From: Verrucomicrobiales bacterium
GTDB taxonomy: Bacteria; Verrucomicrobiota; Verrucomicrobiia; Verrucomicrobiales; DEV007
Assembly (NCBI GenBank): GCA_029213265.1
Contig: JARGNG010000016.1
Span: 39,295 to 103,294 of the forward strand
Length of the DNA: 64,000 nucleotides
Reading direction: 5' to 3'
The notes under the pieces were generated by a model. The model had not been told where the DNA came from. It searched no databases and saw nothing but the letters and a program-made list of their open reading frames with translations. Every line of letters begins with the position of its first letter. The first letter of the stretch is position 1. The position numbers and the translations under genes were made by a program. Shown one piece after another: positions 38,569 through 43,467 of the stretch.

Positions 38569-39528
38569 TTGATCAAAAAGATGCCTGCCGATTCCCACAT
38601 TCTCCGTCGAGCCAGCTGGCTGTCCTTCTGGATTGGAGGATTCATGCTCGTGCTGAAATGCGCGGCCTGGTGGATGACCCGCTCCAGTGCGATCCTCAGT
38701 GATGCAGCGGAGTCGATTGTCCATGTAGCGGCCGTGGCCTTTGTCGTTTACAGCCTGCGCCTTTCCCAAAAACCTCCGGATCAGGACCACCCCTACGGCC
38801 ACGCCAAGATTTCCTTTTTCTCCGCCGGTTTTGAAGGCGGCCTGATTTCCATCGCGGGAGTTTTCATCCTTGTCCAGGCGATCCAGCAATGGATCTCCGG
38901 CATCGCACCTCACGATCTCGGTTCCGGAAGCCTGCTCGTAGCGATCGCGCTCGTGATCAACGCCTGGCTCGGTTGGTACTTGGTTCGCCTGGGCAAAAGG
39001 CATGATTCACTCATTCTCGAGGCAAATGGAAACCATGTCCTCGTCGATGCCTGGACCAGTCTCGGGATTCTCGTGGGATTGCTTCTCACCTGGCTGGCCG
39101 GTTGGCCCTGGCTGGATCCCCTCTGCGCCATCCTCGTTTCCATTCATATTCTCCGGAATGGAATCGGTCTGCTCTGGCGAAGCGCCAACGGATTGATGGA
39201 CCGGGCCGATCCGGAAATTCAGAAGTCTCTTATGGAGGTCCTCGATCGCGAAACGGAAAAATCCGGAATCTCCTGGCACCAACTCCGGCAACGACATCTC
39301 GGAGACGGGCACTGGGTGGACTTTCACCTGGTCTTTGAGGATGAAACCACGGTCCGGGATGCGCATGAAGTGGCATCGAGGATCGAGCAAGAGGTCCGCG
39401 ACGAGTTGGGAGCATCTACGGTTGTGACCAGTCATCTCGAACCTGCGGATGATCATGAGCGGATTCATGGGCATGCCCCCGGTGAGCCCGTCCCGGATCC
39501 GCTCAGTGGCCGCCCCCTCCCTGATTGA
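38569..39528 (+). CDS. Cation diffusion facilitator (FieF-like) transporter
   Basis: SDAAESIVH, HPYGHAK, ANGNHVLVD, AHEVAS. Confidence 0.92.
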   Translation: MIKKMPADSHILRRASWLSFWIGGFMLVLKCAAWWMTRSSAILSDAAESIVHVAAVAFVVYSLRLSQKPPDQDHPYGHAKISFFSAGFEGGLISIAGVFILVQAIQQWISGIAPHDLGSGSLLVAIALVINAWLGWYLVRLGKRHDSLILEANGNHVLVDAWTSLGILVGLLLTWLAGWPWLDPLCAILVSIHILRNGIGLLWRSANGLMDRADPEIQKSLMEVLDRETEKSGISWHQLRQRHLGDGHWVDFHLVFEDETTVRDAHEVASRIEQEVRDELGASTVVTSHLEPADDHERIHGHAPGEPVPDPLSGRPLPD

Positions 39529-39541
39529 TTCAATCAGTTCA

Positions 39542-39589
39542 CTATAGTAATGGATCGGAGCTTGACTTTACTATAGAGTAGTGTAAGGT
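39542..39589 (+). promoter_or_regulatory. Sigma70-like promoter overlapped by a 9-bp inverted repeat
   Basis: TTGACT (39562-67), N16, TAAGGT (39584-89); CTATAGTAA (39542-50) / TTACTATAG (39568-76) brackets the -35. Confidence 0.55.
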
Positions 39590-39609
39590 CCCCGGAGAAA
39601 AATATTCAA

Positions 39610-39819
39610 ATGGTAATACGTAGTAACAGATTTATGCAGACATCGACATCTGGTCGGTGGGAGGGCCATCGTGCCCCCATGCAACTTCTCTATCTCCGTA
39701 GTCAGTTGAATCATAGGGACCCAAATCCTGAGGATTGTTTGATTGGTAAGGAGCTGAACGCTGATTTTGGAGCGTTTTCCGACACCGGGAAGAACGAAGG
39801 GAGGGCCAGGTTTACGTAG
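39610..39819 (+). CDS. Small ORF (69 aa), possible leader of the RNA locus
   Basis: Lies between the promoter and a terminator; no recognisable family. Confidence 0.35.
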   Translation: MVIRSNRFMQTSTSGRWEGHRAPMQLLYLRSQLNHRDPNPEDCLIGKELNADFGAFSDTGKNEGRARFT

Positions 39820-39848
39820 TGAATTCGTAACAGAATTCCATGGTCGTG

Positions 39849-39879
39849 AACCCGCTCTCCGAAAGGAAGCGGGTTTTTT
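39849..39879 (+). terminator. Intrinsic terminator/attenuator ahead of the RNA array
   Basis: AACCCGCT-CTCC-GAAA-GGA-AGCGGGTT followed by TTTT. Confidence 0.8.
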
Positions 39880-39959
39880 GTTGTGTAACCCATTGAAAAT
39901 CAATGGAAAGTAGGGGCTGGAACAGGGCTGCGATACGAAAAAGAAGAACAAAAATATGA

Positions 39960-40466
39960 AAAGCCCGCCGCCAGGTGAGACTGACGACGGGCCGATGAAA
40001 GCGAAGGATCAATGGGATTGATCGCTTGCTCACGCAAGAGAAACGATAGCGTTCTATTTCAATCGGTCAAGTAAAGCAGGGCTGGTTGCCTGCTCGCCGG
40101 ACAGTTGTGTCCGGTAGTAACGAACTTCGCCTTCTATGAAAACTTTATGTAGTAAAATCTGAAGGCTTTTTGGGAGATGTGCCTGCGAAACATCGAAACG
40201 TCCGCCGGGAAAGCCTGCGGCTGTCTCACTGGAGAGGCAACGGTGTTCGTTCTTTATATGGGATGAAAATGACCGCGCAGGCTCCAGTTGAGACTGTTTG
40301 AGTCGTCCAGTGGAATTCACTGGCGACATGGTTCCGTTTTCGCTCCGGTCGCCGGAAGAGACTTAAAAGAAAAGCAGGTCTAGTCCCCTGTGGCAATCCG
40401 CCGGAAGTTGAGATGGAATTCCAGACTCTCAAAACGGCCTGAATGCGTTTTCATTTTCATCCCCAT
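39960..40466 (+). ncRNA. Large multi-domain structured RNA candidate (GOLLD-like by recollection)
   Basis: More than 10 local hairpins plus long-range helices 40119-125/40245-251, 40260-272/40451-463 (13 bp perfect) and 40334-340/40431-437. Confidence 0.65.
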
Positions 40467-40469
40467 TGC

Positions 40470-40543
40470 ATGTCGTAGCACCAGAAGTGCAGGGCAGTCT
40501 CCAAAACTGTCGCGGCCCGGGGCAGCACCGGGGCGGCTTGCCA
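40470..40543 (+). tRNA. tRNA-Trp(CCA)-like, non-canonical T-loop
   Basis: Acceptor ATGTCGT/GCGGCTT, G73, encoded CCA; anticodon loop CT-CCA-AA; T arm CCCGG-GGCAGCA-CCGGG. Confidence 0.7.
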
Positions 40544-40570
40544 TTTCTTCTCGCGGTTTTACCGCGGTAG

Positions 40571-40630
40571 AAAGTGGAAAGGTGAAAGGTTCCAATCGGA
40601 TTGGAACAGTTTTTCACTTTCCCACTTTTT
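40571..40630 (+). terminator. Long imperfect hairpin plus T-run after tRNA-Trp
   Basis: AAAGTGG/CCACTTT, GTGAAA/TTTCAC, GTTCCAA/TTGGAAC stacked stems, then T-run. Confidence 0.5.
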
Positions 40631-40748
40631 AGATGTAGCTCCGGCTATGCCGGAAGCTCGATGAAGTCGAGACGAATGAAACGGCGGTTCATCCGGGGGA
40701 GCAGCGAATCCGCCGCCTCCGGCCGGTAGGAGCATTTCGAAATCCTTT

Positions 40749-40822
40749 ACCAGTCTAGCTGAGACAGATTAGCGTGTCGTTGAAGGCGATGAGAGGTCGG
40801 TGCAATTCCGACGGCTGGTGCC
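40749..40822 (+). tRNA. tRNA-Phe(GAA)-like, non-canonical T-loop
   Basis: Acceptor ACCAGTC/GGCTGGT; D stem GCTG/TAGC; loop TT-GAA-GG; T arm GTCGG-TGCAATT-CCGAC; 3' G-CC. Confidence 0.65.
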
Positions 40823-40832
40823 TTTGAGCGAT

Positions 40833-40964
40833 ATCCCCGTGGTGTAAGAGAAGCATAACGTTCTGCGCGCCGTGCGTAACGAGACTGATTGCTCTCTGAG
40901 CAACCCGAAGGGCAGCATTGCAGTCAAGGTGTCGGATCAGGTGCAAATCCTGGCATGGATACCA
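40833..40964 (+). tRNA. tRNA-like gene with a 58-nt structured insertion in the anticodon loop
   Basis: Acceptor ATCCCCG/CATGGAT (2 mismatches), A73-CCA; D arm GTGT/GCAT; AC stem ACGTT/GGTGT around a 65-nt loop CT...AA; T arm TCAGG-TGCAAAT-CCTGG. Confidence 0.55.
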
Positions 40965-40971
40965 TCTCAAT

Positions 40972-41046
40972 TCCTCTGAAGCATTTACAGTGATGCACCG
41001 GCCTTTTAATCCGGTGAAGAAGGGGCAGTACCTTCCGGGGGAACCA
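40972..41046 (+). tRNA. tRNA-Lys(TTT)-like, non-canonical T-loop
   Basis: Acceptor TCCTCTG/CGGGGGA, A73-CCA; D stem GCAT/ATGC; loop CT-TTT-AA; T arm GAAGG-GGCAGTA-CCTTC. Confidence 0.7.
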
Positions 41047-41179
41047 ATTTTCAGGACCTGAAGAAATACGGCGGACTCGTCGCGTAGGCAATTTGCGCGG
41101 CCCGCTTAGAAAGTCGATTTCAGGCATTCAACACTCAACTTTGAACGTGCATCTCTGAACGGTGCACGTTCTCCAGATC

Positions 41180-41254
41180 CCAGTCGTGGTGTAATCAGCA
41201 GCATTCTACCCTGTGAAGGTAGCGGAGCGGGTGCAAATCCCGTCGACCGGACCA
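41180..41254 (+). tRNA. tRNA-His(GTG)-like, lacking G-1/C73
   Basis: Acceptor CCAGTCG/CGACCGG, A73-CCA; CTACC-CT-GTG-AA-GGTAG; T arm GCGGG-TGCAAAT-CCCGT. Confidence 0.72.
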
Positions 41255-41302
41255 TCTTACAAACTCTTTTCCAGAAGGGAGGCATAGAGTTCCTTCGTCC
41301 TC

Positions 41303-41325
41303 ATAACGGTCTTAAGGTAGCGAAA
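41303..41325 (+). other. 23-nt 23S rRNA-like segment (E. coli 1916-1938, one mismatch)
   Basis: ATAACGGTCTTAAGGTAGCGAAA versus conserved ATAACGGTCCTAAGGTAGCGAAA. Confidence 0.8.
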
Positions 41326-41464
41326 ATCGAGCGGTCGATTCAGCGATCAAGCCCTCGAGACGATGAAATTTCTCGAACAGGCATTCGTGCCTTCGTTCGG
41401 GAGATCGAGTCGATTTCTTTGTAGCCATACCCTCCGGAATCCACCTTCGGATTTCGGATTGATA

Positions 41465-41519
41465 GGAAAGGAGGTGGTGGGCCGGCGCATGAGTGCCGGC
41501 CCGTTCCCTTCCTTTTTCC
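41465..41519 (+). promoter_or_regulatory. Long hairpin sequestering a 10-nt Shine-Dalgarno and an ATG
   Basis: GGAAAGGAGG...GGGCCGGC-GCATGAGT-GCCGGCCC...CCCTTCCTTTTTCC. Confidence 0.45.
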
Positions 41520-41595
41520 TCAAAAAAAACTCGTTTACAAACTGTTACGAAATTCAATTTTGAACTAAAACCAAACCAACTCATCTTATATCACC

Positions 41596-42183
41596 ATGAG
41601 CGCTTCGATCTTGCATCAGAATATCGTTCTGGTTCTCAACCGGAACTGGCAGGCGATCAATACGAGAACCCCTGCCGAAGCTTTCTGCCAAATGGCGACC
41701 GATACCGCGACTGCGCTCGATATCCAGGGCACGGACTTTATGGTCCCCACGAAGTGGAATGACTGGCAGAAGCTGGAAGTCCGCGAGGGCGATGCCAGCA
41801 TCGGGACGGCGCATGGACGAATCCGTGTTCCGACCGTAATTGTTGTCGCCAACTTTGCCAAGGTGCCGAAGAAGCGGCCTAAGTTCAATTCCCGAAATAT
41901 CTGGGAACGCGATGGCGGACGGTGCCAATACACGGGACGGAATCTTCGTCCCGGCGAAGGCAACATCGACCATGTCCTGCCGCGCTCGCGCGGCGGAGAC
42001 ACTACCTGGGAAAACTGTGTTCTTGCCGCTCGCGAGGTGAATTCGCGCAAAGCTGACAAGACTCCGGAAGAAGCGGGCTTGCGATTGCGGAAGGCCCCGA
42101 GGACTCCGCCGGAACTCCCTGTCACGATGTTGCTGCGAAACGTGCACGATATCTCTGACTGGGACCCGTTCCTTCCCGGGTAG
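41596..42183 (+). CDS. HNH endonuclease (McrA/HNH_5-like, tRNA-array type)
   Basis: VLVLNRNWQAI, RVPTVIV, NIWERDGGRCQYTG, IDHVLPRSRGGDTTWENCV, NSRKADKTPEEAG. Confidence 0.9.
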   Translation: MSASILHQNIVLVLNRNWQAINTRTPAEAFCQMATDTATALDIQGTDFMVPTKWNDWQKLEVREGDASIGTAHGRIRVPTVIVVANFAKVPKKRPKFNSRNIWERDGGRCQYTGRNLRPGEGNIDHVLPRSRGGDTTWENCVLAAREVNSRKADKTPEEAGLRLRKAPRTPPELPVTMLLRNVHDISDWDPFLPG

Positions 42184-42342
42184 GCTGTAGCCGGCCCCGG
42201 CGAGGCCGGAAGGACGTAAATGAGTTCCCTCAGCACTCCTTCCCGGCTCGAAGATCCGGGCAACGACTCTGTGCGGAAACACTTTCACTGTCGCGCGGTC
42301 TCGAAGGGCGTCCCGTAGAGATCCCGCTTCTTGGCAGGAAAA

Positions 42343-42414
42343 CACAAGGTAGCTCACTGGTAGACCCTCAGACTGATACTCTGATTGTAGCCGGTTCGAT
42401 TCCGGCCCTGGTTT
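42343..42414 (+). tRNA. Degenerate tRNA-Ile(GAT)-like (pseudo-tRNA)
   Basis: TCAGA-CT-GAT-AC-TCTGA; canonical T arm GCCGG-TTCGATT-CCGGC; mismatched acceptor and D stems; no CCA. Confidence 0.55.
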
Positions 42415-42433
42415 GGAAAACCCGAAAACAAAC

Positions 42434-42687: not shown

Positions 42688-43467
42688 ATGGAAACTGTAA
42701 TCACCATCGCAACCATCGTTGCGGCAATCGCCCTCTGGGCGGCTTCTGTGAAGCTGGTGAACGACTACGTCGAAACCGTAACGATCTGGGACTACCAGAC
42801 CGGGCTCCACTTCAAGAACGGGTGCTATCTCGAATCTCTTGAGGCGGGAAAGCATCGTCTCTGGGGGCGCGGACATTCCGTGATTGTCTTCGATCAACGT
42901 GCTTTCGAACTGGTGGTTCAGAGACAGGAACTGATCACGAGCGACAGCGCGACCGTGAAGCTGACCGCCGTTACCCAGTGGAAAATCGCTGATGCCCTGA
43001 AGTTTCATCTCGGAGTCGATAACGCCCACCAGGCGCTTTACACGCTGGTGCAACTGGCAATGCGTCGGGTTATCGGTGGCCTCGATCTCGATGCGGTGAT
43101 CGAACAGAAAGCGGACTTCGGGAAAACGCTTCTCAAGGAAGTGAAGGGGGACGCGTTCGAAGAACTCGGAATCGGGGTGGGCCGAATTGAAATTCGCGAT
43201 GTGATGCTGAGCGGAGAGCTGAAAAGTTCCTACGCCGGAGTGATCACAGCTCGTAAAGAGGCTCAGGCCCAGCAGGAGCGTGCTCGCGGTGACGCGGCGG
43301 CTCTGCGAACCTTCGCCAACGCGGCTCGAGTCTACGAAAACAACCCGGAGCTCTTCCGCCTGCGTTACCTCGAAACGCTGAAGGAGGCAGGGACCGGATA
43401 CGGAAAGCAGCTCATCATCGGAGTTCCTGAGGAACTGATGGGGCTGGTGAAGAAATCAAACGAATAA
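42688..43467 (+). CDS. Slipin / SPFH (Band 7) domain protein
   Basis: N-terminal TM; LEAGKHRLW, QELITSDSATVKL, IRDVMLSG, AAALRTFANAARVYENNPELFRLRYLETL. Confidence 0.88.
   Translation: METVITIATIVAAIALWAASVKLVNDYVETVTIWDYQTGLHFKNGCYLESLEAGKHRLWGRGHSVIVFDQRAFELVVQRQELITSDSATVKLTAVTQWKIADALKFHLGVDNAHQALYTLVQLAMRRVIGGLDLDAVIEQKADFGKTLLKEVKGDAFEELGIGVGRIEIRDVMLSGELKSSYAGVITARKEAQAQQERARGDAAALRTFANAARVYENNPELFRLRYLETLKEAGTGYGKQLIIGVPEELMGLVKKSNE

Follow-up and report, generated by a model that had tools for sequence, protein, structure and literature searches.

A probable reduced accessory tRNA array in a Verrucomicrobiales bacterium, with an A18/G55 elbow shared by a large family of array tRNAs

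Five tRNA-like genes lie within approximately 0.8 kb (positions 40470–41254, all on the + strand) of a 64,000-nucleotide stretch of contig JARGNG010000016.1 from a Verrucomicrobiales bacterium (hereafter named the window), upstream of a gene for an HNH endonuclease. We consider it probable (roughly 0.7) that this block is a reduced accessory tRNA array upstream of a conserved HNH gene, and that it owes its unusual D- and T-loops to descent within a large group of array tRNAs carrying A18 and G55. Comparison with that family suggests that the A18/G55 elbow is not a product of decay but a second tRNA design, apparently a working one. In cytoplasmic tRNAs G18 and U55 (the latter as pseudouridine-55) are regarded as near-invariant, an assumption built into tRNA gene finders, into maps of modification and into models of how the elbow is recognized.

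Direct reading and a cloverleaf parse both returned the five T-loops that had been listed in the original prediction (Table 1), each of which reads N54-G55-C56. The usual GG was absent from the D-loops, as had also been noted; all five contain AG followed by exactly two bases, read here as A18-G19, and G19 and C56 are retained throughout. The near-universal combination of G18-G19 with T54-pseudouridine55-C56 in tRNA (RF00005) was found in none of the five. As a control, we examined the housekeeping tRNAs of the same genome and obtained GG/TTC in all 29 that could be parsed; the only G55 tRNA that ARAGORN reports genome-wide is the His gene of the window. Canonical His, Lys and Phe genes are present elsewhere in the genome, the window genes being supernumerary. 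With default settings ARAGORN reported only the His gene and a further tRNA-like element (GAU/Ile) located after the HNH gene, and relaxed settings also detected Phe, for which our own cloverleaf finder gave a cloverleaf free of mismatches. Against the Rfam tRNA model, with a gathering cut-off of 29 bits, the His gene scored 49, the Ile-like element 42 and the Lys gene 29.7 bits. The Trp-like and insert-bearing elements were recoverable solely via homology and covariation.

The loops were compared with those of 1,236 distinct array tRNAs, pooled from Verrucomicrobiota loci and IMG/VR viral contigs. A18G19 was combined with G55C56 in 611 of these, and G18G19 with U55C56 in 499. Only 36 were discordant: 35 had GG with GC, part of which is explained by a second GG elsewhere in the D-loop, and one had AG with TC, meaning that A18 occurred with G55 in 611 tRNAs versus a single one with U55. 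The Verrucomicrobiota sequences considered separately (505 distinct) gave 394 A18-G19/G55-C56, 65 G18-G19/U55-C56 and 15 discordant tRNAs, several of the last being artefacts of the rule that locates position 18. Both concordant states were found within 40 of the 51 anticodon families of the pooled set, and kinship inside one family therefore cannot explain the association of positions 18 and 55. A pair of Lys tRNAs illustrates this, with D-loop/T-loop TAAGGTG/ATCGTTC in Synechococcus phage BUCT-ZZ01 (A8:U14) versus TAAAGTG/AGCGTTA in an alternative Lys tRNA. Within the alternative class positions 54, 58 and 60 covary as U-A-U, A-U-A or G-G-A, whereas canonical array members are nearly all U54-A58. 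The covariation of D- and T-loops that had been proposed as a check is thus seen in both the Verrucomicrobiota and the viral-contig sets, and the suggestion of a coordinated alternative elbow gains strong support, as A18 and G55 shift jointly in 40 anticodon families with G19:C56 and G53:C61 kept.

A DNA search over 61 related genomes showed that each element of the window is conserved at 72–97% identity in arrays with many more tRNA genes. Over all homologues found in arrays of other Verrucomicrobiota genomes, some of which contain more than 20 tRNA genes, the identity is 72–99%, and several elements have homologues in viral contigs as well. We aligned four families, their members having been collected on sequence similarity alone. 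Paired cells made up 97.2% in the His family (n=34), 96.2% in the Trp-like family (17 distinct homologues), 98.2% in the Lys family (n=44, 16 from viral contigs) and 95.7% in the Phe family (n=22), with compensatory changes in 14 of 21, 13 of 22, 17 of 21 and 12 of 21 pairs respectively. None of 500 shuffles reached the observed values in any family, and slid controls gave 20–50% pairing. The four-helix cloverleaf of a tRNA is accordingly backed by covariation in all four. Position 56 is always C and position 19 always G in these alignments, A18 and G55 are invariant or nearly so, and the stem bases vary freely. T-loop changes scattered at random among homologues, which the original prediction had named as the pattern of pseudogenes, were not observed; the loop changes are conserved.

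The alternative class as a whole also looks chargeable and competent for decoding, from which a role in translation may be proposed. It covers 35 anticodons and 19 amino acids in the Verrucomicrobiota set, and conserves G53:C61 at 100%, U33 at 92% and a purine at position 37 at 99%. The discriminator base follows the bacterial rules for Asn, Asp and Gln (G), Cys (U) and Ile, Leu, Lys, Pro, Tyr and Val (A), and G3:U70 was found in 7 of 7 alternative Ala tRNAs versus 1 of 374 others. Most alternative-elbow tRNAs of the fuller arrays score above the Rfam cut-off, at 35–67 bits. Such near-complete isoacceptor sets, with U33, purine 37, amino-acid-specific discriminators and G3:U70, meet the needs of decoding and go beyond those of a mimic, which makes it improbable that these RNAs act as decoys or sponges, as substrates for non-ribosomal aminoacyl transfer or as ligands in a Ro60/Y RNA system. 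That idea has a precedent in the non-proteinogenic tRNA-Gly of Staphylococcus, whose elbow is altered (PMC4574755), and is in keeping with the Ro60/TROVE gene and the YrlA-like (Y RNA-like) matches below threshold in related loci; however, tRNAs of the related Anabaena array are charged and possibly serve in translation (PMC8421152).

Several observations weigh against the reading of the block as a reduced A18/G55 array. The Phe, Trp-like and insert-bearing elements had no match to the Rfam tRNA model even at E values up to 10. The window copy of the Trp-like gene is the sole row of its family with an unpaired 2:71; the insert-bearing gene has two acceptor mismatches, not present in a homologue from a related locus (L021, 2053–2184; 85% identical, acceptor stem fully paired), in addition to its 58-nt insert; the Phe tail is CCT rather than CCA; and the His-like gene is without G-1:C73, having A73 and C at −1. 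Within the wider class, Gly (A73) and Phe (often G73) break the discriminator rules of E. coli. Moreover, our cloverleaf finder accepts only paired stems, and alternative-type motifs were among the patterns used to retrieve the viral loci, by which the frequencies of the two states are biased, but not the coupling of positions 18 and 55.

Part of this evidence would suit a rival account, in which all five are pseudogenes with loops altered by random decay: standard finders miss three of the five, the copy in the window has mismatches, an insert and a His-like gene lacking the HisRS identity pair, and the array is far shorter than those of its relatives, the GOLLD RNA and the Ro60 gene found in related loci being absent. 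Nevertheless, we regard decay as a very improbable origin of the loops, as G55-C56 and A18-G19 are invariant over hundreds of homologues whose stems change by compensatory substitution, and the same coupled change in 40 anticodon families is not expected from it. The erosion of the window copy is real, yet separate from the origin of the loops. Judged by its sequence, the block is a reduced, partly eroded relic of a longer array. Fuller arrays have Asp and Arg genes between Lys and His; the window lacks both there. Three-prime ends of the form NCCA are present in four of the five genes, the Phe gene having GCCT, and a 7-nt anticodon loop with U33 and a purine at 37 is present in four of the five elements, the fifth carrying the insert. 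The members of the His family with C73, and the host's own tRNA-His, have G at −1; with A73 and C-1 in the window, it is doubtful whether HisRS would charge the His-like tRNA. Of the five, Phe and Lys alone look fully intact, and the Trp-like, insert-bearing and His-like genes carry defects.

How might an A18/G55 elbow be built? In canonical tRNAs G18 is inserted between bases 57 and 58, with a single contact to pseudouridine-55, and the ribosome, RNase P and T-boxes use the exposed face that G19:C56 forms (PMC4810234). In the T-loops of riboswitches, which have the consensus YGNRA, the intercalating base is nearly always an adenosine, whose bonding partner is the sugar edge of the G in position 2, and CGNRA and rRNA GGAAG classes also exist (bioRxiv 10.1101/2022.12.26.521914). 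TGCAA in three window genes fits the YGNRA consensus, and GGCAG in the Trp-like and Lys genes represents a G...G class; across the arrays, T-loops accompanied by A18 read UGCRA, CGCRA or GGCRG. On the strength of these array loops we infer that the elbow could be a riboswitch-type contact moved into tRNA. According to this proposal, G18 would have changed to A18 and U55 to G55 together, with the outer stacking face of G19:C56 and the G53:C61 pair retained. The T-loop would still fold as a T-loop, but one of the riboswitch (YGNRA) type, and in three dimensions A18 would contact G55, intercalating between 57 and 58 and hydrogen-bonding with the sugar edge of that base, which would replace the G18–pseudouridine-55 contact. 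The 54:58 pair would thereby be freed to be U:A, A:U, G:G or C:A.

The UGCRA and CGCRA array loops resemble the YGNRA T-loops of FMN/cobalamin riboswitches, the partner base being adenosine in both, and GGCAG, as found in the Trp-like and Lys genes, resembles the rRNA GGAAG class. Unlike those of riboswitches, however, the motif here would sit in a tRNA elbow in which C56 still pairs with G19, and it is known from sequence and covariation. An A54...U58 subtype (AGCGU/AGCAU) is absent from the classes named in the riboswitch T-loop study (bioRxiv 10.1101/2022.12.26.521914). Other tRNAs without G18G19 have been described, as the Staphylococcus tRNA-Gly has U18U19 or C18U19 (PMC4574755). Both this tRNA and tRNA-Pyl are single specialized tRNAs in which G19:C56 is lost, whereas the arrays hold an entire isoacceptor set with G19:C56 kept and positions 18 and 55 shifted together. 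We found no description of an A18/G55 elbow in the literature on tRNA arrays, T-loops, phage tRNAs and the tRNA elbow, a search that left most subscription journals outside its reach. The combination of an array and an HNH gene is known; the coordinated A18/G55 elbow is new as far as the literature found goes.

The alternative loop sequences have lost U55 (the TruB site) and G18 (TrmH) and often U54 (TrmA; replaced in approximately 37% of alternative T-loops), and tRNAs with such loops offer no site for pseudouridine-55 or Gm18, even though TruB is encoded in the host genome. Among possible purposes of the elbow, we would rank highest an escape from enzymes that read the T-loop and an independence from modification. 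In the former, the rewired elbow would hide accessory tRNAs from nucleases or toxins that read T-pseudouridine-C/G18, with translation continuing on the spare set. A target of this kind is known, as the CdiA-CT toxin of Burkholderia pseudomallei E479 cuts tRNA between T54 and pseudouridine-55. The removal of exactly two near-universal bases, with features known to serve the ribosome, RNase P and EF-Tu kept (G19:C56 and G53:C61), would suit such an escape, as would the frequency of alternative tRNAs in phage tRNA arrays and the Ro60/TROVE gene adjoining related arrays, and tRNA array units have been discussed as putative anti-defence elements (PMC12803027). Nevertheless, no T-loop- or elbow-directed nuclease was identified in these loci or genomes, and the mixture of canonical and alternative tRNAs in many arrays is a poor fit to a blanket escape; the idea is tentative and on balance rather unlikely.

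Independence from modification appears unlikely too. Here the A18–G55 contact would let the tRNAs fold and work without modification by TruB, TrmA, TrmH or Dus, or chaperoning by TruB, providing a fast-maturing pool during stress or infection. Consistent with this, the bases listed above are missing, and D-loop U residues are fewer in alternative than in canonical array tRNAs (1.27 versus 2.07 in the viral set; 1.09 versus 1.36 in Verrucomicrobiota). Most alternative genes encode CCA (255 of 381), but canonical array members do so equally often, and unmodified canonical tRNAs also fold and function reasonably, which leaves the benefit unclear. A wider and still speculative possibility is that A18–G55 tRNAs constitute a self-contained second class, a complete accessory decoding set of mobile arrays and phages, coupled in Verrucomicrobiota to Ro60/Y RNA and GOLLD. 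It would have been selected as a private pool for times of attack or translational stress, out of reach of enzymes that read G18/T-pseudouridine-C, such as toxins directed at tRNA, nucleases of defence systems, and enzymes of modification or quality control.

We analysed the neighbourhood further, starting from the HNH protein. It has 296 relatives at 60–89% identity in Verrucomicrobiales, Chthoniobacterales, Limisphaerales and Kiritimatiellia; the identity is 89% in Verrucomicrobiales loci and 60–68% in the other orders, compatible with long residence. Neighbourhoods were counted in 80 loci fetched from among these relatives. In approximately 42 of the 80 there are at least three tRNA-like cloverleaves, and as many as 26, nearly all of which precede HNH on its own strand. 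One locus, L048, from a named genome that is not a MAG (‘Verrucomicrobiales bacterium BCK34’), shows four array tRNAs. In close relatives the site between the UDG/CDF genes and HNH may hold an array or be without one: three loci (L041, L057 and L062) have the same neighbourhood with zero array, and other relatives have a 7 kb array there. Presence or absence at one site and related tRNAs on viral contigs might reflect a horizontal spread of the arrays, but the gradation of HNH identity would also suit long residence. A Ro60/TROVE gene lies between array and HNH in approximately 27 of the 80 loci (e.g. L043, 5012–6448), often followed by a conserved 289-residue protein without a Pfam match, and matches to YrlA below threshold were found in two related loci (L003 and L010). 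No TROVE/Ro60 gene was found in the genome of the window, the assembly of which is 93% complete, as distinct from the related loci and from bacterial repair loci built of Ro60 (Rsr) and Y RNA (YrlA). GOLLD-like RNAs occur inside related arrays (Table 1), and in at least four of these five lies an embedded tRNA whose elbow is of canonical type, with GG in its D-loop and U55. None was detected in the window, either at the gathering cut-off or at E values up to 10, or in the rest of the assembly, the latter a weak blank as control genomes were negative too.

Two names are in use for long accessory arrays: ‘L-arrays’ (Santamaria-Gomez et al. 2021, PMC8421152) and ‘tRNA array units’, the term of Tran et al. 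(PMC4758250) and also of Morgado and Vicente. Horizontal spread, and silence except under translational stress, are traits of the class. L-arrays contain up to 43 tRNA genes and a linked gene for an HNH homing-type endonuclease, and Verrucomicrobia are among the phyla listed (PMC8421152); a tRNA array unit was defined as at least 20 tRNA genes at two or more per kb (PMC4758250). The window has the linked HNH gene, a distant homologue of those beside the arrays of Nostoc PCC 7120 (the Anabaena trn operon) and Mycolicibacterium. With five genes in 0.8 kb versus up to 26 in homologous loci, it falls short of a long array and is better considered as an array remnant than as a full member.

The trn operon of Anabaena/Nostoc PCC 7120 (plasmid delta, HNH gene all8564) likewise consists of same-strand supernumerary tRNAs, many with an encoded CCA, and an HNH gene of the same family. 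In that array 23 of 26 tRNAs were aminoacylated in vivo, under translational stress, and a role in translation is possible (PMC8421152). However, 16 of the 17 tRNAs parsed there have canonical GG/TTC and one has AG with GGCAGTA, whereas approximately 75–80% are A18/G55 in Verrucomicrobiota arrays, and the HNH gene is located upstream of the array in cyanobacteria but downstream here. The tRNAs of the two groups are 51–76% identical, no better than to host housekeeping tRNAs, except for Leu. Leu tRNAs with a short variable arm are shared with the Nostoc array (D-loop CAATTGGCAGA there and CAATTAGCAGA here), and it is this Leu type, together with the HNH link, that argues for common descent. In the alternative-elbow class, 47 of 47 Leu tRNAs have a variable loop of 5–6 nt, not the bacterial long arm, and keep a 3-bp D-stem and an 11-nt D-loop; examples are found in L022, L026, L031 and L039, and the Leu tRNAs of the Nostoc plasmid delta array (L121) have this form too. 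In the housekeeping Leu genes of the host the arm is long. The tRNA array units of Mycobacterium also combine an array with HNH and GOLLD (Morgado and Vicente 2018, PMC5966550; Behra et al. 2019, PMC6582537), and the GOLLD-like RNA with an embedded canonical tRNA is shared between them and the relatives of the window, not the window itself. All 26 tRNAs parsed from Mycolicibacterium pCBMA213_1 have a canonical elbow, unlike those of the window.

For phages, alternative tRNAs are common in the tRNA arrays of viral contigs. Both Pseudomonas phage EM and Synechococcus phage BUCT-ZZ01 carry tRNA blocks with canonical U55, and thus no cultured phage with the alternative elbow can be named. The best phage relative of the HNH protein (LR756511, 41% identity) has zero cloverleaves within 12 kb, and among 50,697 phage records searched by blastn with the Lys gene, three matched, all of them weakly.

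Several hundred tRNA genes in which both bases are changed and the other hallmarks kept would show that a second, riboswitch-like elbow is viable. They would supply natural tRNAs beyond the reach of TruB and TrmH, as a probe for the role of these modifications and of the G18–pseudouridine-55 contact, and would allow one to ask whether accessory and phage arrays are built to evade tRNA-directed enzymes. Default finders miss a share of such genes, here three of five, which leaves accessory tRNA sets under-annotated. The particular copy in the window, being small and partly eroded, would be of lower value.

Table 1. Features of the array locus, with GOLLD-like RNAs of related loci
Feature	Position	Strand	Description
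Cation-efflux gene	38569–39528		
Non-coding stretch	39530–41595		between cation-efflux gene and HNH gene
Trp-like tRNA	40470–40543	+	anticodon loop CTCCAAA; D-loop CAGAA; T-loop GGCAGCA; G73-CCA
64-nt hairpin	40568–40631		near-perfect; between Trp-like and Phe genes
tRNA-Phe(GAA)	40749–40822	+	D-loop AGACAGAT (A18-G19); T-loop TGCAATT; G73, tail CCT
Insert-bearing tRNA	40833–40964	+	D-arm GTGT/AAGAGAA/GCAT; T-loop TGCAAAT; A73-CCA
Insert	40866–40925		repeated small element in insert-bearing gene
tRNA-Lys(UUU)	40972–41046	+	D-loop TTACAGTG; T-loop GGCAGTA (G54...G58); A8 with U14; A73-CCA
His-like tRNA (GUG)	41180–41254	+	D-loop AATCAGCA; T-loop TGCAAAT; A73-CCA; C at −1; A3.C70 mismatch
Terminator-like hairpin	41476–41505	+	between array and HNH gene; 13-pair stem, consensus scan
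HNH endonuclease gene	41596–42183	+	Pfam HNH_4 and HNH
tRNA-like element (GAU)	42342–42415	+	D-loop ACTGGTA, T-loop TTCGATT (canonical); acceptor stem poorly paired; ARAGORN and Rfam (42 bits)
SPFH/Band 7 gene	42688–43467	+	Pfam Band_7; adjoins HNH on its downstream side in 29 of 80 loci
GOLLD-like RNAs	L002 376–875; L007 499–994; L011 466–961; L008 1–473; L005 2631–3088		RF02032, 81–135 bits, E 1e-19 to 1e-35; under cut-off of 150

The tRNA-like element located after the HNH gene had been described as a decayed Ile copy that keeps TTCGATT. Its canonical T-loop was confirmed, but the notion of a decayed copy does not hold, as an element at the same position after HNH is conserved in many relatives. 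It was found in several of those checked (e.g. L049, 3718–3792; L051; L052, 8658–8731; L069; L071), directly behind the HNH stop codon; its D and T arms are canonical (GG/TTCGA), the anticodon triplet varies and the acceptor stem is weak or missing. It could be a signal for processing of the HNH mRNA, or be left over from a homing target. The terminator-like hairpin is a weak call, the count of such sites being not above that in shuffles. The hairpin between the Trp-like and Phe genes had only spurious matches to miRNA models in Rfam; at its site relatives hold GOLLD and further tRNA genes. An apparent housekeeping tRNA-Lys(UUU) of the host (contig C94, 8012–8088) has the D-loop AATTGAAA without GG and the canonical T-loop TTCAAGT, which may be a G18-A19 variant or a mis-parse.

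Individual families showed further peculiarities. The whole Lys family has A8 with U14 in place of the near-invariant U8:A14 tertiary pair, a second tertiary covariation, and A8/U14 is also present in the canonical-elbow Lys tRNA of BUCT-ZZ01. The D-arm of the Trp-like gene is compact, with a linker of 1 nt, a stem of 4 bp and a loop of 5 nt; in its family the linker after the acceptor stem is 0–1 nt, the stem 4 bp and the loop 5–6 nt (CAGNN). In tRNA-Pyl one linker base precedes the D-stem and the D-loop has 5 nt, a resemblance to the Trp-like element. Some members of the Trp-like family have an A.A mismatch in the anticodon stem and a 9-nt loop, and many are located 5′ of the detected tRNAs of their array (e.g. 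L022, 9149–9222; L112, 4992–5065). The D-arm of the insert-bearing gene matches that of array Arg(ACG) tRNAs in two relative loci (L027 and L028), and its anticodon loop is split by the insert of ~58 nt. A group I intron was ruled out, 58 nt being too short, as was a known ribozyme, there being no Rfam match. The insert is a small element that recurs, in which CCGAGC..GCGAGAC.GAT is followed by a hairpin and then ..TCAAC, and this motif is present twice in another related locus (L071, 475–640), where the second copy lies in the T-loop of the same tRNA gene.

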